Virus record (IMG/VR): IMGVR_UViG_2706794695_000002
Source: a virus
Taxonomy: Duplodnaviria > Heunggongvirae > Uroviricota > Caudoviricetes
DNA length: 25,215 nt
Strand: one strand, 5' to 3'
Made by a program: the position numbers and the translations under genes. Below the pieces are notes generated by a model that was not told where the DNA came from, searched no databases, and saw only the letters and a list, made by a program, of their open reading frames with translations. This document shows, piece by piece, positions 258 to 24,383 of the stretch (positions are counted from its first letter, which is position 1; each line of letters begins with the position of its first letter).

Positions 258-668
258 TTAGTGCGGAAATATTTGTGTAGTGTTCTGTATGTTCTCAGTA
301 AAGAGTAATGAATTATCAAAGGTATAGTAATACCTTTTGTTTTCGTGGATATTTGTAATCCATCTGAAAACCCCTGCTGTAGCAAGATTTTTCCTGTATT
401 CGTAAAATGATAACTCTCCTGATTTGAATCCTTTTAAGGTGGCTTCTATAAGGCATTTATTTTTTGAAAATCTTACATTTACAACCTTACCCTGTCCTTT
501 TATTAAAACCGTATTATCGTTTTCAAGAACAAGATGAATATTCTCTGTGGCTAAATAGTAAATGTAATGTGAGACATTGTGACGTTTTAGTTCAGAATAA
601 AACCAGTGATAGTTTAAATTATTTCGCACTTTATCGAATATTTGTTTAAAAATGGCAACCTGAGCCAT
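258..668 (-). CDS. Conserved phage protein of unknown function (resembles the lambda right-end ORF and E. coli prophage ybcV-type DUF1398 proteins, as recalled)
   Basis: Track ORF 258..683 (-). The in-frame ATG at 666-668 ([11 protein letters not shown]...) has a GGAAGG Shine-Dalgarno about 9 nt upstream on the minus strand, so it is preferred over the ATG at 681-683, which lies inside that SD. The gene sits in visibly AT-rich DNA (about 27% G+C in a hand-counted 60-nt line). Homology is from memory only. Confidence 0.6.
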
Positions 669-725
669 TGTAGTACCTTCCATGTGATATGAGGGGGCGT
701 AGTCTGCACGATTATCTAAATTGCT

Positions 726-959
726 TCAATCTGGTCTAACCTGTTTTCTGAGCAATTCAGTAATGTCACTCTTTTCTTTGTTTGCTTCAGGCGAAACTCT
801 TTTTTCTGAGCACAGTCTCCGGCGGCAGGCTTCAATGACCCAGGCTGAGAAATTCCCGGACCCTTTTTGAACAAGAGCGATGTTAATTTGTTCAATCATT
901 TGGTTAGGAAAGCGGATGTTGCGGGTTGTTGTTCTGCGGGTTCTGTTCTTCGTTGACAT
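726..959 (-). CDS. Small Arc/MetJ-type ribbon-helix-helix DNA-binding protein (resembles prophage ylcI-type proteins, as recalled)
   Basis: Track ORF, 77 aa. After a basic N-terminus (MSTKNRTRRTTTRNIRFP) comes a segment matching the RHH pattern: a beta-strand (NIRFPNQMIEQI), helix A, a G-S-G-N-F-S turn like the GRSVNSEI turn of P22 Arc, and helix B (AWVIEACRRRL). It lies 57 bp upstream of the 258..668 gene on the same strand. The SD is weak. Confidence 0.5.
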   Translation of the reverse strand: MSTKNRTRRTTTRNIRFPNQMIEQINIALVQKGSGNFSAWVIEACRRRLCSEKRVSPEANKEKSDITELLRKQVRPD

Positions 960-1325: not shown

Positions 1326-1347
1326 GTTTTTGTCCGTGGAATGAACA

Positions 1348-1867: not shown

Positions 1868-1893
<26 letters not shown>
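1348..1893 (+). CDS. nu1: Terminase small subunit
   Basis: Track ORF, 181 aa (MEVNKKQLADIFGASIRTIQNWQEQGMPVL...), essentially identical to lambda gpNu1 as recalled. It lies directly downstream of cosB and its 3' end overlaps the start of A. Confidence 0.97.
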
Positions 1894-5574
<3,681 letters not shown>

Positions 5575-5594
<20 letters not shown>

Positions 5595-6894
5595 TCTCCC
5601 GCATATTGCCAGCATGGCTTTTAATGAGCCGCTGATGCTTGAACCCGCCTATGCGCGGGTTTTCTTTTGTGCGCTTGCAGGCCAGCTTGGGATCAGCTGC
5701 CTGACGGATGCAGTATCCGGCGACAGCCTGACTGCCGGAGAGGCACCCGCGGCGCTGGCGTTATCCGGTGATGATGACGGACCACGACAGGCCCGCAGTT
5801 ATCAGGTAATGAACGGCATCGCCGTGCTGCCGGTGTCCGGCACGCTGGTCAGCCGGACGCGGGCGCTGCAGCCGTACTCGGGGATGACCGGTTACAACGG
5901 CATTATCGCCCGTCTGCAACAGGCTGCCAGCGACCCGATGGTGGACGGCATTCTGCTCGATATGGACACACCGGGCGGAATGGTGGCGGGAGCATTTGAC
6001 TGCGCTGACATCATCGCCCGTGTGCGTGACATAAAGCCGGTATGGGCGCTGGCCAATGACATGAACTGCAGCGCAGGTCAGCTGCTTGCCAGTGCCGCCT
6101 CCCGGCGTCTGGTCACGCAGACCGCCCGGACAGGCTCCATCGGCGTCATGATGGCTCACAGTAATTACGGCGCTGCACTGGAGAAACAGGGCGTGGAAAT
6201 CACGCTGATTTACAGCGGCAGCCATAAGGTGGATGGCAACCCCTACAGCCATCTACCGGATGATGTCCGGGAAACATTGCAGTCCCGGATGGATGCAACC
6301 CGCCGGATGTTTGCACAGAAGGTGTCGGCATATACCGGCCTGTCCGTGCAGGCTGTGCTGGATACCGAGGCTGCAGTGTACAGCGGTCAGGAGGCCATTG
6401 ATGCCGGACTGGCTGATGAACTTGTTAACAGTACCGATGCGATCACCGTCATGCGTGATGCACTGGATGCACGTAAATCCCGTCTCTCAGGAGGGCGAAT
6501 GACCAAAGAGACTCAATCAACAACTGTTTCAGCCACTGCTTCGCAGGCTGACGTTACTGGCGTGGTGCAAGCGACGGAGGGCGAGAACGCCAGCGCGGCG
6601 CAGCCGGACGTGAACGCGCAGATCACCGCAGCGGTTGCGGCAGAAAACAGTCGCATTATGGGGATCCTCAACTGTGAGGAGGCTCACGGACGCGAAGAAC
6701 AGGCACGCGTGCTGGCCGAAACCCCCGGTATGACCGTGGAAACGGCCCGCCGTATTCTGGCCGCAGCACCACAGAGTGCACAGACGCGCAGTGACACTGC
6801 GCTGGATCGTCTGATGCAGGGGGCACCGGCACCGCTGGCTGCAGGTAACCCGGCATCTGATGCCGTTAACGATTTGCTGAACACACCAGTGTAA
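5575..6894 (+). CDS. C: Capsid assembly protease C
   Basis: The track ORF 5440..6894 overlaps B by about 150 nt. The GTG at 5575-5577 gives MTAELRNLPHIASMAFNEPLML..., which matches the lambda gpC N-terminus as recalled (439 aa). Confidence 0.9.
6289..6894 (+). CDS. nu3: Scaffolding protein Nu3 (in-frame internal start within C)
   Basis: In-frame ATG at 6289-6291 (MDATRRMFAQKV...) shares the stop of C, at the offset expected for lambda nu3. Supported by synteny and established lambda biology, not by an independent sequence signal. Confidence 0.65.
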   Translation: MDATRRMFAQKVSAYTGLSVQAVLDTEAAVYSGQEAIDAGLADELVNSTDAITVMRDALDARKSRLSGGRMTKETQSTTVSATASQADVTGVVQATEGENASAAQPDVNAQITAAVAAENSRIMGILNCEEAHGREEQARVLAETPGMTVETARRILAAAPQSAQTRSDTALDRLMQGAPAPLAAGNPASDAVNDLLNTPV

Positions 6895-6903
6895 GGGATG
6901 TTT

Positions 6904-7236
6904 ATGACGAGCAAAGAAACCTTTACCCATTACCAGCCGCTGGGCAATAGTGACCCGGCTCATACCGCAACCGCGCCCGGCGGATTGAGTGCGAAAGCGC
7001 CTGCAATGACCCCGCTGATGCTGGACACCTCCACCCGTAAGCTGGTTGCGTGGGATGGCACCACCGACGGTGCTGCCGTTGGCATTCTTGCGGTTGCTGC
7101 TGACCAGACCAGCACCACACTGACGTTCTACAAGTCCGGCACGTTCCGTTATGAGGATGTGCTCTGGCCGGAGGCTGCCAGCGACGAGACGAAAAAACGG
7201 ACCGTGTTTGCCGGAACGGCAATCAGCATCGTTTAA
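6904..7236 (+). CDS. D: Capsid decoration protein D
   Basis: Translation from 6904 is [27 protein letters not shown]..., matching lambda gpD as recalled. The track ORF starts two codons earlier at 6898 (MFM...), so either start is possible. Confidence 0.95.
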
Positions 7237-7291
7237 CTTTACCCTTCATCACTAAAGGCCGCCTGTGTGGCTTTTTTTACGGGATTTTTTT

Positions 7292-8317
7292 ATGTCGATG
7301 TACACAACCGCCCAGCTGCTGGCGGCAAATGAGCAGAAATTTAAGTTTGATCCGCTGTTTCTGCGTCTCTTTTTCCGTGAGAGCTATCCCTTCACTACGG
7401 AGAAAGTCTATCTCTCACAAATTCCGGGACTGGTAAACATGGCGCTGTACGTTTCGCCGATTGTTTCCGGTGAGGTTATCCGTTCCCGTGGCGGCTCCAC
7501 CTCTGAATTTACGCCGGGATATGTCAAACCCAAGCATGAGGTGAATCCGCAGATGACCCTGCGTCGCCTGCCGGATGAAGATCCGCAGAATCTGGCGGAC
7601 CCGGCTTACCGCCGCCGTCGCATCATCATGCAGAACATGCGTGACGAAGAGCTGGCCATTGCTCAGGTCGAAGAGATGCAGGCAGTTTCTGCCGTGCTCA
7701 AGGGCAAATACACCATGACCGGTGAAGCCTTCGATCCGGTTGAGGTGGATATGGGCCGCAGTGCGGCGAACAACATCACACAGTCCGGCGTCACGGAGTG
7801 GAGCAAGCGTGACAAGTCCACGTATGACCCGACCGACGATATCGAAGCCTACGCGCTGAACGCCAGCGGTGTGGTGAATATCATCGTGTTTGACCCGAAA
7901 GGCTGGGCGCTGTTCCGTTCCTTCAAAGCCGTCAAGGAGAAGCTGGATACCCGTCGCGGCTCTCATTCCGAGCTGGAGACAGCGGTAAAAGACCTGGGCA
8001 AAGCGGTGTCCTATAAGGGAATGTATGGCGATGTGGCCATCGTCGTGTATTCCGGACAGTACGTGGAAAACGGCGTCAAAAAGAACTTCCTGCCGGACAA
8101 CACGATGGTGCTGGGGAACACTCAGGCTCGCGGTCTGCGCACCTATGGCTGCATTCAGGATGCGGACGCACAGCGCGAAGGCATTAACGCTTCTGCCCGT
8201 TACCCGAAAAACTGGGTGACCACCGGCGATCCGGCGCGTGAGTTCACCATGATTCAGTCAGCACCGCTGATGCTGCTGGCTGATCCTGATGAGTTCGTGT
8301 CCGTTCAACTGGCGTAA
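7292..8317 (+). CDS. E: Major capsid protein E
   Basis: The ATG at 7292 gives MSMYTTAQLLAANEQKFKFDPLF..., 341 aa, matching lambda gpE as recalled. The track ORF extends upstream to 7265. Confidence 0.97.
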   Translation: MSMYTTAQLLAANEQKFKFDPLFLRLFFRESYPFTTEKVYLSQIPGLVNMALYVSPIVSGEVIRSRGGSTSEFTPGYVKPKHEVNPQMTLRRLPDEDPQNLADPAYRRRRIIMQNMRDEELAIAQVEEMQAVSAVLKGKYTMTGEAFDPVEVDMGRSAANNITQSGVTEWSKRDKSTYDPTDDIEAYALNASGVVNIIVFDPKGWALFRSFKAVKEKLDTRRGSHSELETAVKDLGKAVSYKGMYGDVAIVVYSGQYVENGVKKNFLPDNTMVLGNTQARGLRTYGCIQDADAQREGINASARYPKNWVTTGDPAREFTMIQSAPLMLLADPDEFVSVQLA

Positions 8318-8318
8318 T

Positions 8319-8342
8319 CATGGCCCTTCGGGGCCATTTTCT
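8319..8342 (+). terminator. Stem-loop with UUCG tetraloop followed by a T-run, in the E-FI intergenic region (possible attenuator or RNA-stability element)
   Basis: ATGGCCC-TTCG-GGGCCAT is a perfect 7-bp stem, followed by TTTTCTCTCT. Late transcription must continue through it into FI and beyond, so it is unlikely to be an efficient terminator. Confidence 0.45.
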
Positions 8343-8358
8343 CTCTGTGGAGGAGTTC

Positions 8359-8757
8359 ATGACGAAAGATGAACTGATTGCCCGTCTTCAGGAGCTGGGT
8401 GAGCAATTGAACCGCGATGTCAGTTTGACGGGAACGAAAGAAGAACTGGCGCTTCGTGTGGCAGAGCTGGAAGAAGAGCTTGATGACACGGATGAAACTG
8501 CCGGTCAGGACACCCCTCTCAGCCGGGAAAATGTGCTGACCGGGCATGAAAATGAGGTGGTATCAGCGCAGCCGGATACCGTGATTCAGGATACGGCTGA
8601 ACTGGTCACGGTCGTGGCACTGGTGACGCTGCATACTGATGCACTTCACGCCACGCGGGATAAACCTGTGGCATTTGTGCTGCCGGGAACGGCGTTTCGT
8701 GTCTCTGCCGGTGTGGCAGCCGAAATGACAGAGCGCGGCCTGGCCAGAATGCAATAA
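8359..8757 (+). CDS. FI: DNA packaging protein FI
   Basis: The ATG at 8359, preceded by GGAGG, gives MTKDELIARLQELGEQLNRDVSLTG..., 132 aa, matching lambda gpFI as recalled with a few substitutions. Confidence 0.9.
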   Translation: MTKDELIARLQELGEQLNRDVSLTGTKEELALRVAELEEELDDTDETAGQDTPLSRENVLTGHENEVVSAQPDTVIQDTAELVTVVALVTLHTDALHATRDKPVAFVLPGTAFRVSAGVAAEMTERGLARMQ

Positions 8758-8768
8758 CGGGAGGCGCT

Positions 8769-9122
8769 GTGGCTGATTTCGATAACCTGTTCGATGCTGC
8801 CATTGCCCGCGCCGATGAAACGATACGCGGGTACATGGGAACGTCAGCCACCATGACATCCGGTGAGCAGTCAGGTGCGGTGATACGTGGTGTTTTTGAT
8901 GACCCTGAAAATATCAGCTATGCCGGACAGGGCGTGCGCGTTGAAGGCTCCAGCCCGTCCCTGTTTGTCCGGACTGATGAGGTGCGGCAGCTGCGGCGTG
9001 GAGACACGCTGACCATCGGTGAGGAAAATTTCTGGGTAGATCGGGTTTCGCCGGATGATGGCGGAAGTTGTCATCTCTGGCTTGGACGGGGCGTACCGCC
9101 TGCCGTTAACCGTCGCCGCTGA
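8769..9122 (+). CDS. FII: Head-tail joining protein FII
   Basis: 117-aa track ORF at the position and length of lambda gpFII. Confidence 0.93.
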   Translation: MADFDNLFDAAIARADETIRGYMGTSATMTSGEQSGAVIRGVFDDPENISYAGQGVRVEGSSPSLFVRTDEVRQLRRGDTLTIGEENFWVDRVSPDDGGSCHLWLGRGVPPAVNRRR

Positions 9123-9133
9123 AAGGGGGATGT

Positions 9134-9712
9134 ATGGCCATAAAAGGTCTTGAGCAGGCCGTTGAAAACCTCAGCCGTATCAGCAAAACGGCGGTGCCCG
9201 GTGCCGCCGCAATGGCCATTAACCGCGTTGCTTCATCCGCGATATCGCAGTCTGCGTCACAGGTTGCCCGTGAGACAAAGGTACGCCGGAAACTGGTAAA
9301 GGAAAGGGCCAGGCTGAAAAGGGCCACGGTCAAAAATCCGCAGGCCAGAATCAAAGTTAACCGGGGGGATTTGCCCGTAATCAAGCTGGGTAATGCGCGG
9401 GTTGTCCTGTCCCGCCGCAGGCGTCATAAAAAGGGGCAGCGTTCATCCCTGAAAGGTGGCGGCAGCGTGCTTGTGGTGGGTAACCGTCGTATTCCCGGCG
9501 CGTTTATTCAGCAACTGAAAAACGGCCGGTGGCATGTTATGCAGCGTGTGGCCGGGAAAAACCGTTACCCCATTGATGTGGTGAAAATCCCGATGGCGGT
9601 GCCGCTGACCACGGCGTTTAAACAGAATATTGAACGGATACGGCGTGAACGTCTTCCGAAAGAGCTGGGCTATGCGCTGCAGCATCAACTGAGAATGGTA
9701 ATAAAGCGATGA
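9134..9712 (+). CDS. Z: Tail completion protein Z
   Basis: 192-aa track ORF at the position and length of lambda gpZ. Its stop overlaps the start of U. Confidence 0.93.
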   Translation: MAIKGLEQAVENLSRISKTAVPGAAAMAINRVASSAISQSASQVARETKVRRKLVKERARLKRATVKNPQARIKVNRGDLPVIKLGNARVVLSRRRRHKKGQRSSLKGGGSVLVVGNRRIPGAFIQQLKNGRWHVMQRVAGKNRYPIDVVKIPMAVPLTTAFKQNIERIRRERLPKELGYALQHQLRMVIKR

Positions 9713-10104
9713 AACATACTGAACTCCGTGCAGCCGTACTGGATGCACTGGAGAAGCATGACACCGGGGCGACGCTTTTTGATGGTCGCCCCGCTGTTTT
9801 TGATGAGGAAGATTTTCCGGCAATTGCCGTTTATCTCACCGGCGCTGAATACACGGGCGAAGAGCTGGACAGCGATACCTGGCAGGCGGAGCTGCATATT
9901 GAAGTTTTCCTGCCTGCTCAGGTGCCGGATTCAGAGCTGGATTCGTGGATGGAGTCCCGGATTTATCCTGTGATGAGCGATATCCCGGCACTGTCAGATT
10001 TGATCACCAGTATGGTGGCCAGCGGCTATGACTACCGGCGCGACGATGATGCGGGCCTGTGGAGTTCAGCCGATCTGACTTATGTCATTATCTATGAAAT
10101 GTGA
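9709..10104 (+). CDS. U: Tail terminator protein U
   Basis: 131-aa track ORF at the position and length of lambda gpU. Confidence 0.93.
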
Positions 10105-10111
10105 GGACGCT

Positions 10112-10852
10112 ATGCCTGTACCAAATCCTACAATGCCGGTGAAAGGTGCCGGGACCACCCTGTGGGTTTATAAGGGGAGCGGTGACCCTTATGCGAACCC
10201 GCTTTCAGACGTTGACTGGTCGCGTCTGGCAAAAGTTAAAGACCTGACGCCCGGCGAACTGACCGCTGAGTCCTATGACGACAGCTATCTCGATGATGAA
10301 GATGCAGACTGGACTGCGACCGGGCAGGGGCAGAAATCTGCCGGAGATACCAGCTTCACGCTGGCGTGGATGCCCGGAGAGCAGGGGCAGCAGGCGCTGC
10401 TGGCGTGGTTTAATGAAGGTGATACCCGTGCCTATAAAATCCGCTTCCCGAACGGCACGGTCGATGTGTTCCGTGGCTGGGTCAGCAGTATCGGTAAGGC
10501 GGTGACGGCGAAGGAGGTGATTACCCGCACGGTGAAGGTCACCAATGTGGGACGTCCGTCGATGGCAGAAGATCGCAGCACGGTGACGGCGACGACCGGC
10601 ATGACGGTGACACCCGCCAGTGCTTCCGTAGTGAAAGGGCAGAGCACCACGCTGACCGTGGCATTCCAGCCGGATGGCGCAACCGACAAGAGCTTCCGTG
10701 CGGTGTCTGCGGATAAAACAAAAGCCACCGTGTCGGTCAGTGGTATGACCATCACCGTGAAAGGTGTTGCTGCAGGCAAGGTCAACATTCCGGTCGTATC
10801 TGGTAATGGTGAGTTTGCTGCGGTTGCAGAAATCAACGTCACCGCCAGTTAA
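10112..10852 (+). CDS. V: Major tail tube protein V (with C-terminal Ig-like domain)
   Basis: The ATG at 10112, preceded by GAGGAC, gives [22 protein letters not shown]..., 246 aa, matching lambda gpV as recalled. The track ORF begins 10 codons upstream. Confidence 0.95.
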
Positions 10853-10867
10853 TCCGGAGAGTCAGCG

Positions 10868-11290
10868 ATGTTCCTGAAAACCGAATCATTTGAACATAAC
10901 GGTGTGACCGTCACGCTTTCTGAACTGTCAGCCCTGCAGCGTATTGAGCATCTCGACCTGATGAAACGGCAGGCAGAACAGGCGGAGTCAGACAGCAACC
11001 GGAAGTTTACTGTGGAAGACGCCATCAGAACCGGCGCTTTTGTGGTTGCGATGTCCCTGTGGCATAACCATCCGAAGAAGACGCAGATGCCGTCCATGAA
11101 TGAAGCCGTTAAACAGATTGAGCAGGAAGTGCTTACCACCTGGCCCACAGAGGCAATTTCTCATGCTGAAAACGTGGTGTACCGGCTGTCCGGTATGTAT
11201 GAGTTTGTGGTGAATGATGCTCCTGAACAGGCAGAGGACGCCGGGCCTGCAGAGCCTGTTTCTGCGGGAAAGTGTTCGACGGTGAGCTGA
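10868..11290 (+). CDS. G: Tail assembly chaperone G
   Basis: 140-aa track ORF at the position and length of lambda gpG. Confidence 0.93.
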   Translation: MFLKTESFEHNGVTVTLSELSALQRIEHLDLMKRQAEQAESDSNRKFTVEDAIRTGAFVVAMSLWHNHPKKTQMPSMNEAVKQIEQEVLTTWPTEAISHAENVVYRLSGMYEFVVNDAPEQAEDAGPAEPVSAGKCSTVS

Positions 11291-11706
11291 GTTTTGCCCT
11301 GAAACTGGCGCGTGAGATGGGGCGACCCGACTGGCGCGCCATGCTTGCCGGGATGTCATCCACGGAGTATGCCGACTGGCACCGCTTTTACAGTACCCAT
11401 TATTTTCATGATGTTCTGCTGGATATGCACTTTTCCGGGCTGACGTACACCGTGCTCAGCCTGTTTTTCAGCGATCCGGAGATGCATCCGCTGGATTTCA
11501 GTCTGCTGAACCGGCGCGAGGCTGACGAAGAGCCTGAAGATGATGTGCTGATGCAGAAAGCGGCAGGGCTTGCCGGAGGTGTCCGCTTTGGCCCGGACGG
11601 GAATGAAGTTATCCCCGCTTCCCCGGATGTGGCGGACATGACGGAGGATGACGTAATGCTGATGACAGTATCAGAAGGGATCGCAGGAGGAGTCCGGTAT
11701 GGCTGA
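10868..11706 (+). CDS. Tail assembly chaperone G-T, made by programmed -1 ribosomal frameshift
   Basis: The slippery heptamer GGGAAAG at 11266-11272 lies near the 3' end of G. The -1 frame (track ORF 11272..11706) stays open to 11706 and overlaps the start of H. This is the established lambda G/GT mechanism. Confidence 0.8.
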
Positions 11707-14260
11707 ACCGGTAGGCGATCTGGTCGTTGATTTGAGTCTGGATGCGGCCAGATTTGACGAGCAGATGGCCAGAGTCAGGCGTCATTTTTCCGGTACGGAA
11801 AGTGATGCGAAAAAAACAGCGGCAGTCGTTGAACAGTCGCTGAGCCGACAGGCGCTGGCTGCACAGAAAGCGGGGATTTCCGTCGGGCAGTATAAAGCCG
11901 CCATGCGTATGCTGCCTGCACAGTTCACCGACGTGGCCACGCAGCTTGCAGGGGGGCAGAATCCCTGGCTGATCCTGCTGCAACAGGGTGGTCAGGTTAA
12001 GGACTCCTTCGGCGGGATGATCCCCATGTTCAGGGGGCTTGCCGGCGCGATCACCCTGCCGATGGTGGGGGCCACCTCGCTGGCGGTGGCGACCGGTGCG
12101 CTGGCGTATGCCTGGTATCAGGGCAACTCAACCCTGTCCGATTTCAACAAAACGCTGGTCCTTTCCGGTAATCAGGCGGGACTGACGGCAGATCGTATGC
12201 TGGTCCTGTCCAGAGCCGGGCAGGCGGCAGGGCTGACGTTTAACCAGACCAGCGAGTCACTCAGCGCACTGGTTAAGGCGGGGGTAAGCGGTGAGGCTCA
12301 GATTGCGTCCATCAGCCAGAGTGTGGCGCGTTTCTCCTATGCATCCGGCGTGGAGGTGGACAAGGTCGCTGAAGCCTTCGGGAAGCTGACCACAGACCCG
12401 ACGTCGGGGCTGACGGCGATGGCACGCCAGTTCCATAACGTGACGGCGGAGCAGATTGCGTATGTTGCTCAGTTGCAGCGTTCCGGCGATGAAGCCGGGG
12501 CATTGCAGGCGGCGAACGAGGCCGCAACGAAAGGGTTTGATGACCAGACCCGCCGCCTGAAAGAGAACATGGGCACGCTGGAGACCTGGGCAGACAGGAC
12601 TGCACGTGCATTCAAATCCATGTGGGATGCGGTGCTGGATATTGGTCGTCCTGATACCGCGCAGGAGATGCTGATTAAGGCAGAGGCTGCGTTTAAGAAA
12701 GCAGACGACATCTGGAATCTGCGCAAGGATGATTATTTCGTTAACGATGAAGCACGGGCGCGTTACTGGGATGATCGTGAAAAAAAACGCCTGGAGCGGG
12801 ATGCAGCCCAAAAGAGGGTAGATCAACAGCGTCAACAGGACAAAAATGCGCAGCAGCAGAGCGATACCGAAGCGTCACGGCTGAAATATACCGAAGAGGC
12901 GCAGAAGGCTTACGAACGGCTGCAGACGCCGCTGGAGAAATATACCGCCCGTCAGGAAGAACTGAACAAGGCACTGAAAGACGGAAAAATCCTGCAGGCA
13001 GATTACAACACGCTGATGGCGGCGGCGAAAAAGGATTATGAAGCGACGCTGAAAAAGCCGAAACAGTCCGGCGTGAAGGTGTATGCGGGCGATCGTCAGG
13101 AAGACAGTGCTCATGCGGCCCTGCTGACGCTTCAGGCAGAACTCCGGACGCTGGAGAAGCATGCCGGAGCGAATGAGAAAATCAGCCAGCAGCGCCGGGA
13201 TTTGTGGAAGGCAGAAAGTCAGTTCGCGGTACTGGAGGAGGCGGCACAACGTCGCCAGCTGTCCGCACAGGAGAAATCCCTGCTGGCGCATAAAGACGAG
13301 ACGCTGGAGTACAAACGCCAGCTGGCTGCACTTGGTGACAAGGTTACGTATCAGGAGCACCTGAATGCGCTGGCGCAGCAGGCGGATAAATTCGCACAGC
13401 AGCAACGGGCAAAACGGGCAGCCATTGATGCGAAAAACCGGGGGCTGACTGACCGGCAGGCAGCGCGGGAAGCCACGGAACAGCGCCTGAAGGAACAGTA
13501 TGGCGATAATCCTCTGGCGCTGAATAACGTCATGTCAGAGCAGAAAAAGACCTGGGCGGCTGAAGACCAGCTTCGCGGGAGCTGGATGGCAGGCCTGAAG
13601 TCCGGCTGGAGTGAGTGGGAAGAGAGCGCCACGGACAGTATGTCACAGGTTAAAAGTGCAGCCACGCAGACCTTTGATGGTATTGCACAGAATATGGCGG
13701 CGATGCTGACCGGCAGTGAACAGAACTGGCGCAGCTTCACCCGCTCCGTGCTGTCCATGATGACAGAAATTCTGCTTAAGCAGGCAATGGTGGGGATTGT
13801 CGGGAGTATCGGCAGCGCCATTGGCGGGGCTGTTGGTGGCGGCGCATCCGCGTCAGGTGGTACAGCCATTCAGGCCGCTGCGGTGAAATTCCATTTTGCA
13901 ACCGGGGGATTTACGGGAACCGGCGGCAAATATGAGCCAGCGGGGATTGTTCACCGTGGTGAATTTGTCTTCACGAAGGAGGCAACCAGCCGGATTGGCG
14001 TGGGGAATCTCTACCGGCTGATGCGCGGCTATGCGGAAGGTGGTTATGTGGGCGGTGCCGGAAGTCCGGCGCAGATGCGGCGGGCTGAAGGCATTAATTT
14101 TAATCAGAACAATCACGTGGTGATTCAGAACGACGGTACGAATGGTCTGCCAGGTCCACAGATGATGAAGGCCGTGTATGACATGGCCCGCAAGGGTGCC
14201 CGTGATGAAATTCAGACACAGATGCGTGATGGTGGCCTGTTCTCCGGAGGTGGACGATGA
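11699..14260 (+). CDS. H: Tail tape measure protein H
   Basis: 853-aa track ORF, the same length as lambda gpH, with the usual Ala/Gln/Lys-rich helical middle and Gly-rich C-terminal part. Confidence 0.97.
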   Translation: MAEPVGDLVVDLSLDAARFDEQMARVRRHFSGTESDAKKTAAVVEQSLSRQALAAQKAGISVGQYKAAMRMLPAQFTDVATQLAGGQNPWLILLQQGGQVKDSFGGMIPMFRGLAGAITLPMVGATSLAVATGALAYAWYQGNSTLSDFNKTLVLSGNQAGLTADRMLVLSRAGQAAGLTFNQTSESLSALVKAGVSGEAQIASISQSVARFSYASGVEVDKVAEAFGKLTTDPTSGLTAMARQFHNVTAEQIAYVAQLQRSGDEAGALQAANEAATKGFDDQTRRLKENMGTLETWADRTARAFKSMWDAVLDIGRPDTAQEMLIKAEAAFKKADDIWNLRKDDYFVNDEARARYWDDREKKRLERDAAQKRVDQQRQQDKNAQQQSDTEASRLKYTEEAQKAYERLQTPLEKYTARQEELNKALKDGKILQADYNTLMAAAKKDYEATLKKPKQSGVKVYAGDRQEDSAHAALLTLQAELRTLEKHAGANEKISQQRRDLWKAESQFAVLEEAAQRRQLSAQEKSLLAHKDETLEYKRQLAALGDKVTYQEHLNALAQQADKFAQQQRAKRAAIDAKNRGLTDRQAAREATEQRLKEQYGDNPLALNNVMSEQKKTWAAEDQLRGSWMAGLKSGWSEWEESATDSMSQVKSAATQTFDGIAQNMAAMLTGSEQNWRSFTRSVLSMMTEILLKQAMVGIVGSIGSAIGGAVGGGASASGGTAIQAAAVKFHFATGGFTGTGGKYEPAGIVHRGEFVFTKEATSRIGVGNLYRLMRGYAEGGYVGGAGSPAQMRRAEGINFNQNNHVVIQNDGTNGLPGPQMMKAVYDMARKGARDEIQTQMRDGGLFSGGGR

Positions 14261-14586
14261 AAACCTTCCGCTGGAAAGTGAAACCCGGTATGGATGTGGC
14301 TTCGGCCCCTTCTGTAAGAAAGGTGCGCTTTGGTGATGGCTATTCCCAGCGAGCGCCTGCCGGGCTGAATGCCAACCTGAAAACGTACAGCGTGACGCTT
14401 TCTGTCCCCCGTGAGGAGGCCATGGTACTGGAGTCGTTTCTGGAAGAGCACGGGGGCTGGAAAGCCTTTCTGTGGACGCCGCCTTATGAGTGGCGGCAGA
14501 TAAAGGTGACCTGCGCAAAATGGTCGTCGCGGGTCAGTATGCTGCGTGTTGAGTTCAGCGCAGAGTTTGAACAGGTGGTGAACTGA
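14257..14586 (+). CDS. M: Tail tip protein M
   Basis: 109-aa track ORF at the position and length of lambda gpM. It overlaps the H stop. Confidence 0.93.
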   Translation: MKTFRWKVKPGMDVASAPSVRKVRFGDGYSQRAPAGLNANLKTYSVTLSVPREEAMVLESFLEEHGGWKAFLWTPPYEWRQIKVTCAKWSSRVSMLRVEFSAEFEQVVN

Positions 14587-15284
14587 TGCAGGATATCCGG
14601 CAGGAAACACTGAATGAATGCACCCGTGCGGAGCAGTCGGCCAGCGTGGTGCTCTGGGAAATCGATCTGACAGAGGTCGGTGGAGAACGTTATTTTTTCT
14701 GTAATGAGCAGAACGAAAAAGGTGAGCCGGTCACCTGGCAGGGGCGACAGTATCAGCCGTATCCCATTCAGGGGAGTGGTTTTGAACTGAATGGCAAAGG
14801 CACCAGTACGCGCCCCACGCTGATGGTTTCTAACCTGTACGGTATGGTCACCGGGATGGCGGAAGATCTACAGAGTCTGGTCGGCGGAACGGTGGTCCGG
14901 CGTAAGGTTTACGCCCGTTTTCTGGATGCGGTGAACTTCGTCAACGGAAACAGTGACGCCGATCCGGAGCAGGAGGTGATCAGCCGCTGGCGCATTGAGC
15001 AGTGCAGCGAACTGAGCGCGGTGAGTGCCTCTTTTGTACTGTCCACGCCGACGGAAACAGATGGCGCTGTTTTTCCGGGACGTATCATGCTGGCCAACAC
15101 CTGCACCTGGACCTATCGCGGCGATGAGTGCGGTTATCACGGTCCGGCGGTCGCGGATGAATATGACCAGCCAACGTCCGACATCACGAAGGATAAATGC
15201 AGCAAATGCCTGAGTGGCTGTAAGTTTCGCAATAACGTCGGCAACTTTGGCGGCTTCCTTTCCATTAACAAACTTTCGCAGTAA
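14586..15284 (+). CDS. L: Tail tip protein L
   Basis: 232-aa track ORF at the position and length of lambda gpL, with a Cys cluster in the C-terminal part (CTWTYRGDECGY ... CSKCLSGC). Confidence 0.93.
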   Translation: MQDIRQETLNECTRAEQSASVVLWEIDLTEVGGERYFFCNEQNEKGEPVTWQGRQYQPYPIQGSGFELNGKGTSTRPTLMVSNLYGMVTGMAEDLQSLVGGTVVRRKVYARFLDAVNFVNGNSDADPEQEVISRWRIEQCSELSAVSASFVLSTPTETDGAVFPGRIMLANTCTWTYRGDECGYHGPAVADEYDQPTSDITKDKCSKCLSGCKFRNNVGNFGGFLSINKLSQ

Positions 15285-15289
15285 ATCCC

Positions 15290-15718
15290 ATGACAGAGAC
15301 AGAATCAGCGATTCTGGCGCACGCCCGGCGATGTGCTCCAGCGGAGTCGTGCGGCTTCGTGGTAAGAACGCCGGAGGGGGAAAGATATTTCCCCTGCGTG
15401 AATATCTCCGGTGAGCCGGAGGCGTATTTCCGTATGTCGCCGGAAGACTGGCTGCAGGCAGAGATGCAGGGTGAGATTGTGGCACTGGTCCACAGCCACC
15501 CCGGTGGTCTGCCCTGGCTGAGTGAGGCCGACCGGCGGCTGCAGGTGCAGAGTGATTTGCCGTGGTGGCTGGTCTGCCGGGGGGCGATTCACAAGTTCCG
15601 CTGTGTGCCACATCTTACCGGGCGGCGCTTTGAGCACGGGGTGACGGACTGTTACACGCTGTTCCGGGATGCTTACCATCTGGCGGGGATTGAGATGCCG
15701 GATTTTCATCGTGAGGAT
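15290..15718 (+). CDS. K: Tail tip assembly protein K (JAB/MPN plus NlpC/P60 type), 3' end lost in the N run
   Basis: MTETESAILAHARRCAPAESCGFVV... contains the JAMM-like EIVALVHSHPGG motif. The reading frame runs into the N run that starts at 15719. The classical lambda K start corresponds to the internal ATG near 15434; the upstream start at 15290 is used because it includes the conserved ESCG segment. Confidence 0.85.
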
Positions 15719-15789
15719 NNNNNNNNNNNNNNNNNNNNNNNNNNNNNNNNNNNNNNNNNNNNNNNNNNNNNNNNNNNNNNNNNNNNNNN
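15719..15789. other. Run of 71 N (assembly gap or masked bases) covering the K 3' end and I 5' end
   Basis: Literal n characters in the sequence. The track ORF 15290..16270 is an artifact of translating through the N run. Confidence 0.99.
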
Positions 15790-16270
15790 TGCCGGGCAGG
15801 ATGTTAGCACGTCCGGATTAACGGCACAGTTACATGAGGCTCTGCCTGACGGCGCTGTGATTCATATTGTTCCCAGAGTCGCCGGGGCCAAGTCAGGTGG
15901 TGTATTCCAGATTGTCCTGGGAGCAGCCGCCATTGCCGGATCATTCTTTACCGCCGGAGCCACCCTTGCAGCATGGGGGGCTGCCATTGGTGCCGGTGGT
16001 ATGACCGGCATTCTGTTTTCTCTCGGTGCCAGTATGGTGCTCGGCGGTGTGGCTCAGATGCTGGCACCGAAAGCCAGAACTCCCCGCACACAGACAACGG
16101 ATAACGGTAAGCAGAACACCTATTTCTCCTCACTGGATAACATGGTTGCCCAGGGCAATGTTATGCCTGTTCTGTATGGTGAAATGCGCGTGGGGTCACG
16201 TGTGGTATCTCAGGAGATCAGCACGGCAGACGAAGGGGACGGTGGTCAGGTTGTGGTGATTGGTCGCTGA
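15790..16270 (+). CDS. I: Tail tip assembly protein I, 5' end lost in the N run
   Basis: The sequence after the gap (AGQDVSTSGLTAQLHEALPDGAVIHIVPRVAGAKSGGVFQIVLGAAAIAG...VVVIGR) matches the C-terminal two-thirds of lambda gpI as recalled. The stop is at 16268-16270. Confidence 0.85.
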
Positions 16271-16330
16271 TGCAAAATGTTTTATGTGAAATCGCCTCCG
16301 GGCGGTTTTATCGTTTATGGAGCATGACGA

Positions 16331-19300
16331 ATGGGTAAAGGCAGCAGTAAGGGGCATACCCCGCGCGAAGCGAAGGACAACCTGAAGTCCACGCAGCTGC
16401 TGAGTGTGATCGATGCCATCAGCGAAGGGCCGGTTGAAGGTCCGGTGGATGGATTAAAAAGCGTGCTGCTGAACAGTACGCCGGTGCTGGACAGTGAGGG
16501 GAATACCAACATCTCCGGCGTCACGGTGGTGTTCCGGGCAGGTGAGCAGGAGCAGTCACCGCCGGAGGGATTTGAATCCTCCGGCTCCGAGACGGTGCTG
16601 GGTACGGAAGTGAAATATGACACGCCGATCACCCGGACCATCACGTCGGCAAACATTGACCGACTGCGTTTTACCTTCGGTGTACAGGCACTGGTGGAAA
16701 CCACCTCAAAGGGAGACAGGAATCCGTCTGAAGTTCGCCTGCTGGTTCAGATACAGCGTAACGGTGGCTGGGTGACGGAAAAAGACATCACCATTAAGGG
16801 CAAAACCACCTCGCAGTATCTGGCCTCGGTGGTGGTGGATAACCTGCCGCCGCGCCCGTTTAATATCCGGATGCGCAGAATGACGCCGGACAGCACCACA
16901 GACCAGCTGCAGAACAAAACGCTCTGGTCGTCATACACCGAAATCATCGATGTGAAACAGTGCTACCCGAACACGGCACTGGTCGGCGTACAGGTGGATT
17001 CGGAGCAGTTCGGCAGCCAGCAGGTGAGCCGTAATTATCATCTTCGCGGGCGCATTCTGCAGGTGCCGTCGAACTATAATCCGCAGACGCGGCAATACAG
17101 CGGTATCTGGGACGGAACGTTAAAACCGGCATACAGCAACAACATGGCCTGGTGTCTGTGGGATATGCTGACCCATCCGCGCTATGGCATGGGGAAACGT
17201 CTTGGTGCGGCAGATGTGGATAAATGGGCGCTGTATGTCATCGGCCAGTACTGTGACCAGTCGGTGCCGGACGGCTTTGGCAGCACGGAGCCGCGCATCA
17301 CCTGTAATGCCTGGCTGACCACACAGCGCAAGGCGTGGGATGTGCTCAGTGATTTCTGCTCGGCGATGCGCTGTATGCCGGTATGGAACGGGCAGACGCT
17401 GACGTTCGTGCAGGACCGACAGTCGGATAAGGTGTGGGCCTATAACCGCAGTAATGTGGTGATGCCGGATGATGGCGCGCCGTTCCGCTACAGTTTCAGC
17501 GCCCTGAAAGACCGCCATAATGCCGTTGAGGTGAACTGGATTGACCCGGATAACGGCTGGGAGACGGCGACAGAGCTTGTGGAGGATACGCAGGCCATTG
17601 TCCGTTACGGTCGTAACGTCACGAAGATGGATGCCTTTGGCTGTACCAGCCGGGGGCAGGCACACCGCGCCGGGCTGTGGCTGATTAAAACGGAACTGCT
17701 GGAGACGCAGACCGTGGATTTCAGCGTGGGTGCTGAAGGGCTTCGTCATGTACCGGGCGATGTCATTGAAATCTGCGATGATGACTATGCCGGTATCCGC
17801 ACCGGCGGGCGCGTGCTGGCGGTGAACAGCCAGACCCGGACGCTGACGCTCGACCGTGAAATCACGCTGCCATCCTCCGGCACCACGCTGATAAGCCTGG
17901 TTGACGGGCAGGGGAATCCGGTCAGCGTGGAGGTCCAGTCCGTCACCGACGGCGTGAAGGTAAAAGTGAGCCGTGTTCCTGACGGTGTTGCTGAATACAG
18001 CGTGTGGGGGCTGAAGCTGCCGACGCTGCACCAGCGATTGTTCCGCTGCGTGAGTATCCGTGAGAACGACGACGGCACGTATGCCATCACCGCCGTGCAG
18101 CATGTGCCGGAAAAAGAAGCCATCGTGGATAACGGGGCGCACTTTGACGGCGACCAGAGCGGCACGGTGAATGGTGTCACGCCGCCAGCGGTGCAGCACC
18201 TGACTGCCGAAGTCACCGCAGACAGCGGGGAATATCAGGTGCTGGCGCGCTGGGACACGCCGAAGGTGGTGAAGGGCGTGAGCTTCCTGCTCCGTCTGAC
18301 CGTAACAGCGGATGACGGCAGTGAGCGGCTGGTCAGCACGGCCCGGACGACGGAAACCACTTACCGCTTCACACAACTGGCGCTGGGGAACTACAGGCTG
18401 ACAGTCCGGGCAGTAAATGCGTGGGGGCAGCAGGGCGATCCGGCGTCGGTATCGTTCCGGATTGCCGCACCGGCAGCGCTGTCGCGGATTGAGCTGACGC
18501 CGGGCTATTTTCAGATAACCGCCACGCCGCATCTTGCGGTTTATGATCCGACGGTACAGTTTGAGTTCTGGTTCTCGGAAAAGCGGATTGCGGATATCAG
18601 GCAGGTTGAAACCACAGCACGCTATCTTGGCACGGCGCTGTACTGGATAGCCGCCAGTATCAATATCAAACCGGGCCATGATTATTACTTTTATATCCGC
18701 AGTGTGAACACCGTTGGCAAATCGGCATTCGTGGAGGCTGTTGGTCAGCCGAGTGATGATGCATCCGGTTATCTGGATTTTTTCAAAGGCGAGATAGGGA
18801 AAACCCATCTGGCTCAGGAGCTGTGGACGCAGATTGATAACGGTCAGCTTGCGCCTGACCTGGCTGAAATCAGGACGTCCATTACGGATGTCAGCAATGA
18901 AATCACGCAGACCGTCAATAAGAAACTGGAAGACCAGAGTGCGGCAATTCAGCAGATACAGAAGGTTCAGGTTGATACAAATAATAACCTGAACAGCATG
19001 TGGGCTGTGAAGCTGCAGCAGATGCAGGACGGACGCCTTTATATCGCGGGTATTGGTGCCGGTATTGAGAACACCCCTGACGGCATGCAGAGTCAGGTGC
19101 TGCTGGCGGCGGACAGGATTGCGATGGTTAATCCTGCGAATGGCAACACAAAACCGATGTTTGTTGGTCAGGGCGATCAGATATTCATGAACGACGTGTT
19201 CCTGAAACGCCTGACGGCCCCCACCATTACCAGCGGTGGAAATCCATCGGCATTTTCCCTGACTCCGGACGGAAAGCTGACCGCTAAAAATGCGGATATC

Positions 19301-19828
19301 AGTGGCAGTGTGAATGCGAACGCCGGGACGCTCAACAATGTCACGGTAAATGAAAACTGTACGATTAAGGGCATGCTGGAGGCGACTCAGGTCAGAGGTG
19401 ACTTCGTTAAAGCTGTATCCAAATCATTTCCGAAACAGGCTGGTACGTGGGGTAACACGGAAACACCAAACGGGACGGTTACAGTCACCATAAGCGATGA
19501 TCATAACTTTGACCGCCAGATTATTATTCCGCCCATTATTTTTAACGGTATAGCGTATGACGATCCGGGGAGCGGAAATAACCCAGGAGGCACGCGATAC
19601 ACGGGTTATGGTTTTGAAGTTCGCAAAAACGGCGTATTAATCGCATCCAGAGAAACTAAAGGGGCCATTCCCGGTAGTTACAGTGCAGTTATTGATATGC
19701 CTAGTGGTGGTGGTAGCGTCACTCTGGAGTTTAAGATTTTCCAGAAAGGCAATCAGGGGGCAGGCAATATCACCGACTGTACGGTGATTGTGACCAAAAA
19801 AGCGGCTTCCGGCATCAGTATTCGTTGA
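16331..19828 (+). CDS. J: Central tail fibre / host-specificity protein J, with a C-terminal receptor-binding region that differs from lambda
   Basis: 1165-aa track ORF. The N-terminal ~1000 aa match lambda gpJ as recalled; the last ~150 aa differ and the protein is about 33 aa longer than lambda J. Confidence 0.95.
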
Positions 19829-19850
19829 AATATTTATAACCCCAATAAAT

Positions 19851-19876
19851 GGCGTCAGGAATGACGCCTTTTTTAT
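19851..19876 (+). terminator. Rho-independent terminator downstream of J
   Basis: GGCGTCA-GGAA-TGACGCC is a perfect 7-bp stem with a 4-nt loop, followed by TTTTTTATT. Confidence 0.65.
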
Positions 19877-19898
19877 TGCAGAAAAGCGAGAGGTAATT

Positions 19899-20498
19899 AT
19901 GCGTAAAGTTTGTGCAGCCATTTTGTCCGCAGCCATTTGCCTGGCCGTATCCGGTGCGCCTGCATGGGCGTCTGAACATCAGTCCACGCTGAGCGCGGGG
20001 TATCTTCATGCCCGGACCAACGTTCCCGGCAGTGATGATCTGAACGGGATTAACGTGAAATACCGTTATGAGTTTACGGATACGCTGGGGCTGGTGACGT
20101 CATTCAGCTATGCAGGAGACAAGAATCGCCAGCTGACCCGTTACAGCGATACCCGCTGGCATGAAGATTCCGTTCGTAACCGCTGGTTCAGCGTAATGGC
20201 GGGGCCGTCTGTGCGCGTGAATGAATGGTTCAGCGCGTATGCGATGGCGGGTGTGGCTTACAGCCGTGTGTCGACTTTTTCCGGGGATTATATCCGCGTA
20301 ACTGACAATAAGGGGAAAACGCACGATGTGCTGACCGGAAGTGATGACGGTCGCCACAGCAACACGTCTCTGGCGTGGGGAGCTGGCGTGCAGTTTAACC
20401 CGACCGAATCCGTGGCCATTGATATTGCTTATGAAGGCTCCGGCAGTGGCGACTGGCGCACTGACGGTTTCATCGTGGGTGTCGGTTATAAATTCTGA
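19899..20498 (+). CDS. lom: Outer-membrane beta-barrel protein Lom (Ail/OmpX/PagC family), a moron gene
   Basis: 199-aa track ORF with a signal peptide (MRKVCAAILSAAICLAVSGAPAWA). The conserved barrel segments INVKYRYE and DIAYEGSGSGDWRTDGFIVGVGYKF match lambda Lom as recalled. The RBS is GAGAGG. It sits between two terminators in the lambda lom position. Confidence 0.9.
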   Translation: MRKVCAAILSAAICLAVSGAPAWASEHQSTLSAGYLHARTNVPGSDDLNGINVKYRYEFTDTLGLVTSFSYAGDKNRQLTRYSDTRWHEDSVRNRWFSVMAGPSVRVNEWFSAYAMAGVAYSRVSTFSGDYIRVTDNKGKTHDVLTGSDDGRHSNTSLAWGAGVQFNPTESVAIDIAYEGSGSGDWRTDGFIVGVGYKF

Positions 20499-20524
20499 TT
20501 AGCCAGGTAACACAGTGTTATGAC

Positions 20525-20552
20525 AGCCCGCCGGTTCAGGCGGGCTTTTTTG
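20525..20552 (+). terminator. Rho-independent terminator downstream of lom
   Basis: AGCCCGCC-GGTTCA-GGCGGGCT is a perfect 8-bp GC-rich stem, followed by TTTTTTGT. Confidence 0.7.
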
Positions 20553-20556
20553 TGGG

Positions 20557-23500
20557 GTGAATATGGCAGTAAAGATTTCAGGTGTACTGAAAGACGGCAC
20601 AGGAAAACCGGTACAGAACTGCACAATCCAGCTGAAAGCAAAACGTAACAGCACCACGGTGGTGGTGAACACGCTGGCCTCAGAAAATCCGGATGAAGCC
20701 GGGCGTTACAGCATGGACGTTGAGTACGGTCAGTACAGCGTTATTCTGTTGGTGGAAGGATTCCCGCCGTCACATGCCGGGACCATCACCGTGTATGAAG
20801 ATTCCCGACCCGGTACGCTGAATGATTTTCTCGGTGCCATGACGGAGGATGATGCCCGTCCGGAGGCACTGCGCCGTTTTGAGCTGATGGTGGAAGAGGT
20901 GGCGCGTAACGCGTCCGCGGTGGCACAGAACACGGCAGCCGCGAAGAAATCAGCCAGCGATGCCAGCACATCAGCCCGTGAGGCGGCAACCCATGCGACT
21001 GATGCTGCAGATTCAGCACGTGCAGCCAGCACGTCAGCCGGACAGGCCGCTTCGTCGGCTCAGTCAGCGTCTTCCAGCGCAGGAACGGCATCAACAAAGG
21101 CCACTGAAGCCTCAAAAAGTGCTGCCGCTGCAGAGTCCTCAAAAAGCGCGGCGGCTACCAGTGCCGGTGCGGCGAAAACGTTAGAAACGAATGCGGCAGC
21201 GTCACAACAATCAGCAGCCACTTCTGCATCCACCGCGACCACGAAAGCGTCAGAAGCTGCCACCTCAGCCCGGGATGCGTCGGCTTCAAAAGAGGCGGCA
21301 AAATCATCAGAAACGAACGCATCATCAAGCGCCAGTAGCGCAGCTTCCTCGGCGACGGCGGCTGCAAATTCTGCGAAGGCGGCCAAAACGTCCGAGACGA
21401 ACGCCAGGTCTTCTGAAACGGCAGCGGGACAGAGTGCCTCAGCTGCGGCAGGCTCAAAAACAGCGGCTGCGTCGTCTGCCAGCGCCGCGTCAACAAGTGC
21501 CGGGCAGGCCTCAGCCAGTGCCACCGCCGCCGGAAAATCGGCAGAAAGCGCCGCATCATCCGCTTCAACAGCCACAACGAAGGCTGGCGAAGCCACTGAG
21601 CAGGCCACGGCAGCAGCGAGGTCAGCTTCCGCAGCGAAGACATCCGAAACGAACGCGAAAGCGTCGGAAACCCGTGCAGAATCCTCAAAAACGGCTGCCG
21701 CATCGTCCGCCAGTTCGGCGGCGTCATCGGCATCATCGGCGTCTGCTTCAAAAGATGAGGCGACCAGACAGGCGTCAGCAGCGAAGGGCAGCGCCACGAC
21801 GGCATCCACGAAGGCGACAGAGGCTGCTGGTAGTGCGACGGCAGCAGCTNNNNNNNNNNNNNNNNNNNNNNNNNNNNNNNNNNNNNNNNNNNNNNNNNNN
21901 NNNNNNNNNNNNNNNNNNNNNNNNNNNNNNNNNNNNNNNNNNNNNNNNNNNNNNNNNNNNNNNNNNNNNNNNNNNNNNNNNNNNNNNNNNNNNNNNNNNN
22001 NNNNNNNNNNNNNNNNNNNNNNNNNNNNNNNNNNNNNNNNNNNNNNNNNNNNNNNNNNNNNNNNNNNNNNNNNNNNNNNNNNNNNNNNNNNNNNNNNNNN
22101 NNNNNNNNNNNNNNNNNNNNNNNNNNNNNNNNNNNNNNNNNNNNNNNNNNNNNNNNNNNNNNNNNNNNNNNNNNNNNNNNNNNNNNNNNNNNNNNNNNNN
22201 NNNNNNNNNNNNNNNNNNNNNNNNNNNNNNNNNNNNNNNNNNNNNNNNNNNNNNNNNNNNNNNNNCAGCGCGACCAACAGCACGTCTGAAACGCTGGCGG
22301 CAACGCCAAAGGCAGTAAAAGCAGCCAATGACAATGCTGAGAAACGTCTGCAGAAAGATCAGAACGGTGCGGATATCCCTGGCAAAGACACCTTTACGAA
22401 AAATATTGGTGCCTGCCGTGCCTTCGGTGGGTCAGTAAGCACAACAACAGGAAACTGGACGACTGCACAGTTTATCGAGTGGCTGGATTCTCAGGGAGCA
22501 TTTAACCATCCATACTGGATGTGCAAGGGTTCCTGGTCTTATGGCAATAATAAAATCATTACTGATACTGGCTGCGGTAATATTCATCTCGCCGGAGCTG
22601 TCATTGAAGTAATGGGGATAAAGTCAGCGATGACGATCCGCATTACCACTCCGACCACATCCAGCGGTGGCGGAACAACCAACGCCCAGTTTACCTATAT
22701 TAATCACGGAACAGATTATTCACCTGGCTGGCGAAGGGACTATAACTCCAGAAATAAGCCAACGGCATCAGAGATCGGGGCGCTACCGTCAGGTGGAACA
22801 GCAGTATCATCAGTTAATCTGGCTTCAAAAGGTCGGGTAGCCGCGCTGACAGACAATACGCAGGGGGCAGCAGGTCTTGAGTTATACGAGGTGTATAACA
22901 ACGGATATCCAACAGCGTATGGAAATATCATTCACCTGAAAGGGATGACAGCCGTTGGCGAAGGTGAGTTACTCATCGGCTGGAGTGGTACAAGCGGTGC
23001 TCATGCTCCGGCATTTATTCGTTCACGACGGGATACGACCGACGCAAACTGGTCGCCGTGGGCGCAGCTTTACACCTCGGCTCATCCTCCTGCAGAGTTT
23101 TATCCAGTCGGTGCACCAATCCCGTGGCCATCAGATACCGTTCCGTCTGGTTATGCCCTGATGCAGGGGCAGACTTTTGACAAATCTGCTTACCCGAAAC
23201 TTGCAGCCGCTTATCCGTCAGGCGTGATCCCTGATATGCGTGGCTGGACGATTAAGGGCAAGCCCGCCAGTGGTCGTGCCGTATTGTCTCAGGAACAGGA
23301 TGGCATTAAATCGCACACCCACAGCGCCAGCGCATCCAGTACGGATTTGGGGACGAAAACCACATCGTCGTTTGATTACGGCACTAAATCCACGAATAAC
23401 ACCGGGGCGCATACGCACAGTCTGAGCGGCTCTACAAGTTCAGCTGGGGCCCACCAACATAGTCAGACTGGGCCCAGAACGAATAGCGGGAGTCAACCTA

Positions 23501-23802
23501 CTGGAATGTTTCCGGCAGGGAGTACTCAAGTTAGCGGGACTAATCAGGTTGGTATCAGTGGCTCATTAACCAGTGGCACCTCCCAATGGGTAGGTAAATC
23601 ATCTTCAGAAGGAAACCATACACACTCACTGTCCGGCACAGCAGCATCTGCGGGTGCACACGCGCATACTGTCGGTATTGGTGCTCATACGCACTCTGTT
23701 GCGATTGGTTCACATGGACACACCATCACCGTTAACGCTGCTGGTAACGCGGAAAACACCGTCAAAAACATCGCATTTAACTATATTGTGAGGCTCGCAT
23801 AA
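20557..23802 (+). CDS. stf: Side tail fibre protein Stf (apparently one uninterrupted frame; interior interrupted by an N run)
   Basis: Track ORF. The N-terminal part has a long Ala/Ser/Thr-rich repeat shaft (repeated ...AAKTSETNA...-type units). The C-terminal part has His-x-His repeats (GAHTHS, GAHQHS, GNHTHS, GAHAHT, GAHTHS, GSHGHT) and ends ...[11 protein letters not shown], as in lambda Stf and T4 gp37-type fibres as recalled. The true length is unknown because of the gap. Confidence 0.9.
21850..22265. other. Run of 416 N inside the stf repeat region (assembly gap)
   Basis: Literal n characters. The surrounding sequence is highly repetitive Ala/Ser/Thr-coding DNA, which typically collapses in short-read assembly. 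Confidence 0.99.
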
Positions 23803-24383
23803 TGGCATTCAGAATGAGTGAACAAGCACGGACCATAAAAATTTATAACCTGCTGGCCGGAACTAATGAATTTATTGGTGAAGGTGACGCATATATTCCG
23901 CCTCATACAGGTCTGCCTGCAAACAGTACCGATATTGCACCGCCAGATATTCCGGCTGGTTTCGTGGCTGTTTTCAACAGTGATGAGTCATCGTGGCATC
24001 TCGTTGAAGATCATCGGGGTAAAACGGTTTATGACGTGGCTTCCGGCGACGCGTTATTTATTTCTGAACTCGGCTCATTACCGGAAAATGTCACCTGGTT
24101 ATCCCCGGAAGGGGAGTTTCAGAAGTGGAACGGCACAGCCTGGGTGAAGGATACGGAAGCAGAAAAACTGTTCCGGATCCGGGAGGCGGAAGAAACAAAA
24201 AACAGCCTGATGCAGGTAGCCAGTGAGCATATAGCGCCGCTTCAGGATGCTGTGGATCTGGAGATCGCAACGGAGAAAGAAACCTTGTTGCTGGAAGCTT
24301 GGAAAAAGTATCGGGTGTTGCTGAACCGTGTTGATACATCAACTGCACCGGATATTGAATGGCCAGTAGCACCTATAGGGTAA
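23802..24383 (+). CDS. tfa: Tail fibre assembly protein Tfa
   Basis: 193-aa track ORF ([44 protein letters not shown]...) matching lambda Tfa as recalled. Its start overlaps the stf stop (TAATG). Confidence 0.95.

Follow-up and report, generated by a model that had tools for sequence, protein, structure and literature searches.

The h434 host-range allele has been in use in lambda genetics for decades. Phage 434 uses OmpC as its receptor, and a lambda whose J has been exchanged for the tail-fibre gene of 434 binds OmpC as well (PMC3509688). That both 434 and lambda with 434 J use OmpC instead of LamB is stated likewise in PMC11101478 and PMC12502783, with Hantke 1978, as cited, for the case of 434 and protein Ib. 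For two other alleles, exchange of only the part of J after lambda residue 964 moves lambda from LamB to OmpC, the junction of these Eligo chimeras having been set in the "last stretch of identity" (PMC11338833). In lambda itself, the three C-terminal Ig-like domains push four bottom loops into the LamB trimer, whereupon the domains spread, a twist passes up the fibre and the tail opens; the domain map of the same protein places the alpha-helical shaft (AHS) at residues 841-861 (PMC11101478).

We describe here the allele identity, breakpoints, mosaic structure and prevalence of a J gene carried by a Caudoviricetes sequence from IMG/VR (IMGVR_UViG_2706794695_000002), the whole 25,215-nucleotide stretch of which is referred to as the window. 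The 3' end of this gene encodes a 434-type Ig-like receptor-binding domain (RBD). We consider it probable that this domain, which most probably docks on OmpC, came to sit on a lambda-like tail by recombination of a tip/terminator/lom block, and that the phage-21-type shaft above it derives from a second exchange.

From nu1 to tfa the window follows lambda collinearly at ~97% identity, and it corresponds to the structural half of a lambda-like phage or prophage; by blastn, nucleotide identity to lambda is 97% over positions 1171-15718 and 95% over positions 15790-18827. The first 1170 nucleotides, 5' of the lambda-like left end (nu1), hold small minus-strand ORFs at 258..683 (141 aa) and 726..959 (77 aa). 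Further in, a 71-base N run lies inside K/I at 15719-15789, where lambda has 404 bases. The 326-aa ORF at 15290..16270 has the appearance of a K-I fusion deletion that would make the prophage defective, but it is an artefact of this run, which masks part of K and I. In genome_contigs, an exact search with 200 nt of the window gave no match, and a 60-nt pattern from the RBD matched one E. coli contig, which at 96% identity to the window is not its source.

J keeps its place in the lambda tail gene order, 3' of I and 5' of lom and stf, and is longer than its lambda counterpart (1165 versus 1132 aa). Its overall identity is 82% to lambda J and 90% to 434 J. Six Pfam families are matched, all above their curated cut-offs, in the order Phage-tail_3, FNIII-A_GpJ, Ig_J, Ig_J_second, Phage_Tail_Tip and Ig_GpJ_C, with the tail tip fibre family (PF09327) spanning residues 872-1000. 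The protein therefore has the architecture of a lambda-type tip protein, with a hub, FNIII and Ig domains, a tail-tip fibre and a C-terminal Ig RBD. Within this conserved architecture, J is a mosaic of three parts, lambda-like, then 21-like, then 434-like (Table 1). The hub and FNIII part is ~97% identical to lambda, with 37-40 matches in every 40 residues.

Table 1. Features of J and of the genes downstream of it, in window coordinates
Feature	Position	Strand	J residues	Basis and remarks
J (tip attachment protein / central tail fibre)	16331..19828	+	1-1165	1165 aa, intact ORF; ORF list and translation
J hub and FNIII part	16331..18745	+	1-805	Common to lambda, 434 and 21
Phage-21-type module: alpha-helical shaft and upper straight fibre	18746..19165	+	~806-945	Sliding-window nucleotide identity
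Conserved lower-fibre stretch	19166..19330	+	~946-1000	Common to all alleles; likely recombination junction
434-type receptor-binding end	19331..19828	+	1001-1165	Sliding-window identity, RBD identity, PF12421
Ig_GpJ_C domain (PF12421)	19415-19822	+	1029-1164	Pfam
Terminator-like hairpin followed by T-run, 3' of J	19851..19868	+		Consensus scan; predicted
lom (Ail/Lom outer-membrane protein), 434-type	19899..20498	+		PF06316, E = 2.4e-122
stf (side tail fibre)	20557..23802	+		phage_tail_N and Collar domains; length uncertain, N run inside
tfa (tail fibre assembly)	23802..24383	+		PF02413; 92.8% nucleotide identity to lambda orf-194

The original prediction for this locus held that J matches lambda up to about residue 1000 and that its receptor-binding C-terminus has been replaced, as is usual for host-range switching by module exchange. 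The peptides on which it relied are all found in J, and alignment with lambda J confirms that the end of the protein diverges: from residue ~1001 (nt 19331) identity falls from 38/40 to 9-21/40 per 40 residues. The start of divergence had been put at 19300 (residue 990), ~10 codons or less from the true breakpoint. Over the last ~155 residues the two proteins are 38.6% identical, so the C-terminus is not highly similar to that of lambda. It is nonetheless no unrelated replacement, since it can be aligned to lambda from end to end (tblastn E = 6e-15) and belongs to the same Pfam family. The match to that family, PF12421 (Ig_GpJ_C, described in Pfam as "C-terminal receptor binding domain"), scores 89.2 bits against a gathering cut-off of 26.2 and covers profile positions 1-134 of 135.

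When the C-terminus is searched against other lambdoid J proteins the match is the allele of phage 434, an OmpC user according to the literature. The last 214 residues of J align to 434 (434B) J without gaps and with 199 identities (93%). Within the RBD, J shares 95.5% of its residues with wild-type 434, 94.8% with the laboratory hybrid lambda h434 imm21 and 99.4% with 2B8; the last 165 residues differ from 434 by 9 substitutions and from PhiR26_1 by 1. The same picture is obtained at the nucleotide level, where sliding-window identity across the receptor-binding end is 83-100% to 434, 87-100% to 2B8 and 38-72% to lambda. High identity to the LamB-binding allele of lambda (lambda J residues ~988-1132) is absent, the 38.6% figure being accompanied by indels, and identities to other lambdoid tips are also low (42.5% to 21, 45.5% to A8 and ~45% to Fels-1 and phi330). 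We considered the OmpC-binding tip of the Eligo A8 chimera as the identity of this domain, and phi330, a known OmpC user, as a proxy for it; with only ~45% RBD identity in each case, the former is ruled out and the latter was set aside. Across phage records, 74 are at least 90% identical to the last 150 residues of J and every other match falls below 60%. The 74 include Evi, 2B8, mEp332, mEp460, cdtI, phi458 and Stx1a, Stx2a, Stx2c, Stx2d and Stx2k phages. The near-identity to the 434 J C-terminus, with zero indels, shows that the J tip is the classical phage 434 (h434) host-range allele and not the LamB-binding version of lambda.

Upstream of the tip, the shaft module has a different affiliation. 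At the nucleotide level it agrees with phage 21 and 1H12 at 93-100% of positions and with lambda, 434 and 2B8 at 10-65%; against lambda, identity drops to 10-30% in some 60-nt windows, and blastn returns no lambda alignment at all for 18828-18996. Relative to lambda and 434 the module contains 28 extra residues at J residues ~836-866 (nt 18836-18928), seen as one 28-aa gap against 434 and equal in number to four heptads. Aligned to the lambda domain map, these residues appear to belong to the alpha-helical shaft or to border on it, above the straight fibre. J proteins of phage 21 and 1H12 are 1160 aa long, and those of lambda, 434 and 2B8 1132-1137 aa. The shaft block is present in 65 phage records, with various RBD types: it occurs with 21-type tips in 1H12 and PhiR47_2 and with a 38%-identical type of tip in the PPompW phages. 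In 2B8 and PhiR26_1, on the other hand, the 434-type tip goes with a short shaft. The two modules therefore assort independently.

These features qualify the original prediction in two respects. Identity to lambda does not persist to residue ~1000 but already collapses in the shaft module, at residues ~806-945. Likewise, J is indeed 33 aa longer than in lambda, but 28 of the 33 residues lie upstream and not in the C-terminus, the receptor-binding end being only ~5 aa longer than that of lambda. Because the differences from lambda thus form two separate modules, the difference in length is not a property of the RBD. The proposal of a host-range module exchange and a receptor other than LamB is supported, since the end is the 434 allele, sits next to a conserved stretch that is the likely recombination junction, and 434 as well as lambda with 434 J use OmpC instead of LamB. 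It had escaped notice that the allele is a classical one with a name of its own, that it far outnumbers the lambda allele, and that J contains a second, independent module swap further upstream.

Between the two variable modules is a lower-fibre stretch that is conserved among all the alleles compared, with lambda, 434, 21 and 2B8 all at 77-98% nucleotide identity (lambda at 87-98%). Homologous recombination in this stretch, just upstream of the tip, would swap tip, terminator and lom between lambdoid phages, which would account for a 434-type allele on an otherwise lambda-like tail. A second, independent exchange further upstream would have given J its longer phage-21-type helical shaft. The DNA downstream of J follows the affiliation of the tip. 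At 91.6% identity, positions 18997-20984 align to 434; up to 20371, the alignment to lambda consists of no more than scattered fragments. The 434-like DNA thus extends past the J stop codon through the hairpin and lom and into the start of stf, to ~20984. The phage 434 record has a terminator annotated at the position matching the hairpin, and Lom is identical to 434 Lom at 192 of 199 residues (96%). This continuity through the terminator-like hairpin and lom indicates that the tip moves as a block with lom.

The remainder of the region is occupied by stf and tfa. The stf ORF, as read, is 1081 aa long and runs through a 416-base N run at 21850-22265; the C-terminal 250 residues of Stf are 70% identical to lambda orf-314. 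From the 22840-24383 region, stf is apparently full-length, unlike the frameshifted stf of laboratory lambda. The Stf of Ur-lambda has been reported to bind OmpC, and by analogy J and Stf might share one porin target here. Between lom, stf and tfa (19899-24383) the ORF list and Pfam reveal no further plus-strand ORF of at least 80 aa, and hence no candidate of that length for cor, the exclusion gene found 3' of the tail-fibre genes in FhuA-dependent lambdoid phages of the phi80/N15/HK022 type.

How would this tip work? As in lambda, three copies of J would form the tip, and their bottom loops would dock on a trimeric outer-membrane porin, whereupon the fibre would rearrange so as to open the tail. 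In the present case OmpC, and not LamB, is most probably the porin. For this variant, both the binding to OmpC and the mode of docking are inferred from the known systems: 434 uses OmpC, and tip swaps retarget lambda to OmpC. The lambda h434 hybrid does not by itself tell the contribution of the J tip apart from that of the side fibre, because its 434 DNA reaches into stf; in lambda h434 imm21 (OM418627) the left lambda/434 crossover lies inside J at record nt 17619-17637 (residues ~705-711), and from there on the sequence is of 434 type, lom included, and remains so within stf as far as record nt 21499 or beyond, the comparison having ended there. The literature examined contained no experiment on this exact J variant or its 99%-identical relatives, and no receptor data for Evi, 2B8, mEp332, mEp460, cdtI, phi458 or the Stx1a and Stx2c phages. 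The nearest solved structures are those of A8 gpJ, including a complex with OmpC, and of lambda gpJ with LamB. A single-sequence AF2 model of the RBD shows only beta structure, at a confidence (pLDDT 52.7) too low for placing the substitutions on the receptor-contact loops, and a Foldseek search with this low-confidence model returned only 9wca, 9wcb, 8xck and 8xcj at E <= 0.001, with TM ~0.5.

Similarity between RBDs is a poor guide to the receptor, and small changes can matter. The tip of A8 gpJ is 98.6% identical to that of phi330 and 81% identical to that of phage 21; A8 and phi330 use OmpC, while phage 21 is reported to use LamB. Only a handful of substitutions in lambda J, reportedly found by Meyer et al. 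in 2012 and alluded to in PMC11101478, adds the use of OmpF. It is therefore worth asking whether the window carries a 434-type allele of shifted specificity, accepting another subset of OmpC variants than 434 does or another trimeric porin (OmpF, or LamB again). The 9 substitutions relative to 434 would give scope for such a shift, as would the span of 90-99% nucleotide identity within the 434-type family across 2113 genomes. OmpC is moreover polymorphic, and two other gpJ alleles accept different OmpC variants (PMC11338833). Set against this, the RBD matches 434 at more than 95% identity without indels, and near-identical alleles occur in phages with K-12 as the recorded host, the background in which 434 uses OmpC (the records of both PhiR26_1, one substitution away in the last 165 residues, and mEp332 give E. 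coli K-12 MG1655). We regard a shifted specificity as unlikely. A related proposal, marginally easier to entertain though still improbable, is that both variable modules of J, assorting independently, may each be adaptive, the shaft affecting reach or triggering and the 9 tip substitutions tuning the range of OmpC variants. Were this true, the commonest tail tip among E. coli prophages would be locked in a continuing arms race with the polymorphic OmpC.

Two further readings fare considerably worse. A non-porin receptor, with FhuA as an example, might be considered for the tip because mEp332 and mEp460 carry the 434-type tip allele, and FhuA is given as the most frequent receptor in the Mexican mEp lambdoid collection, with OmpC secondary, by Hernandez-Sanchez 2008, as cited in PMC11893012. 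This is difficult to reconcile with a domain that shares 95.5% identity with its counterpart in 434, an OmpC user, and belongs to the Ig_GpJ_C family, the characterised members of which all bind trimeric porins; in addition, the ORFs 3' of J are lom, stf and tfa, with none of 80 aa or more between them that could be cor. Of all the readings considered this is the least credible. Only slightly less far-fetched is the idea that J is a relic in a defective prophage, with a tip that has no current function. The two N runs mask parts of K/I and of stf, which leaves some room for such a state, but J is an intact 1165-aa frame, the lambda-like head and tail genes are all there, at ~97% identity to lambda, and the seeming K-I fusion reflects an N run and no deletion. 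Docking of a functional 434-type tip on OmpC thus remains our preferred reading.

Of 5426 complete E. coli genomes, 2113 (~39%) carry the 434-type tip (nt 19385-19828) and 98 carry lambda's own tip, all 98 at 99% identity or more; the three lambda-tip records listed are all laboratory strains. The long shaft and the 434-type tip occur together, at a coverage of at least 80%, in 1164 complete E. coli genomes. What looks like a replacement is therefore the usual condition, with reference lambda as the outlier. Since the allele is classical, named and widespread, the finding is real but ordinary, and, with the exact mosaic already in GenBank as mEp332, it carries little weight as a discovery. Its use lies in annotation, where the prophage of the window should be recorded as a probable OmpC user and not a LamB user, and lambda's own tip recognized as the rare one.

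J can be compared with several described systems. Lambda J (NC_001416; PDB 8XCJ/8XCK) has the same architecture and the same Pfam RBD family, but differs in the RBD (38.6% identity) and in the shaft module. A8 gpJ (PDB 9WCA, and 9WCB with OmpC), in which an OmpC-binding tip sits on a lambda scaffold, is the best match of solved structure (E = 9e-105), but the RBDs of A8 and phi330, at ~45% identity, represent a different allele. In phage 21 and 1H12 J the module of shaft and upper fibre is shared, complete with its 28 extra residues, whereas the RBD of 21 is only 42.5% identical. Phage 434 J (OL657226) has the same receptor-binding end (95.5%, gap-free), terminator position and 434-type lom, but is a 1137-aa protein with a short, lambda-like shaft in place of the 28-aa-longer phage-21-type shaft of the window. 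In mEp332, J (PV340541) has the same 1165-aa, three-part mosaic without indels, at 97% identity and with 33 substitutions overall.
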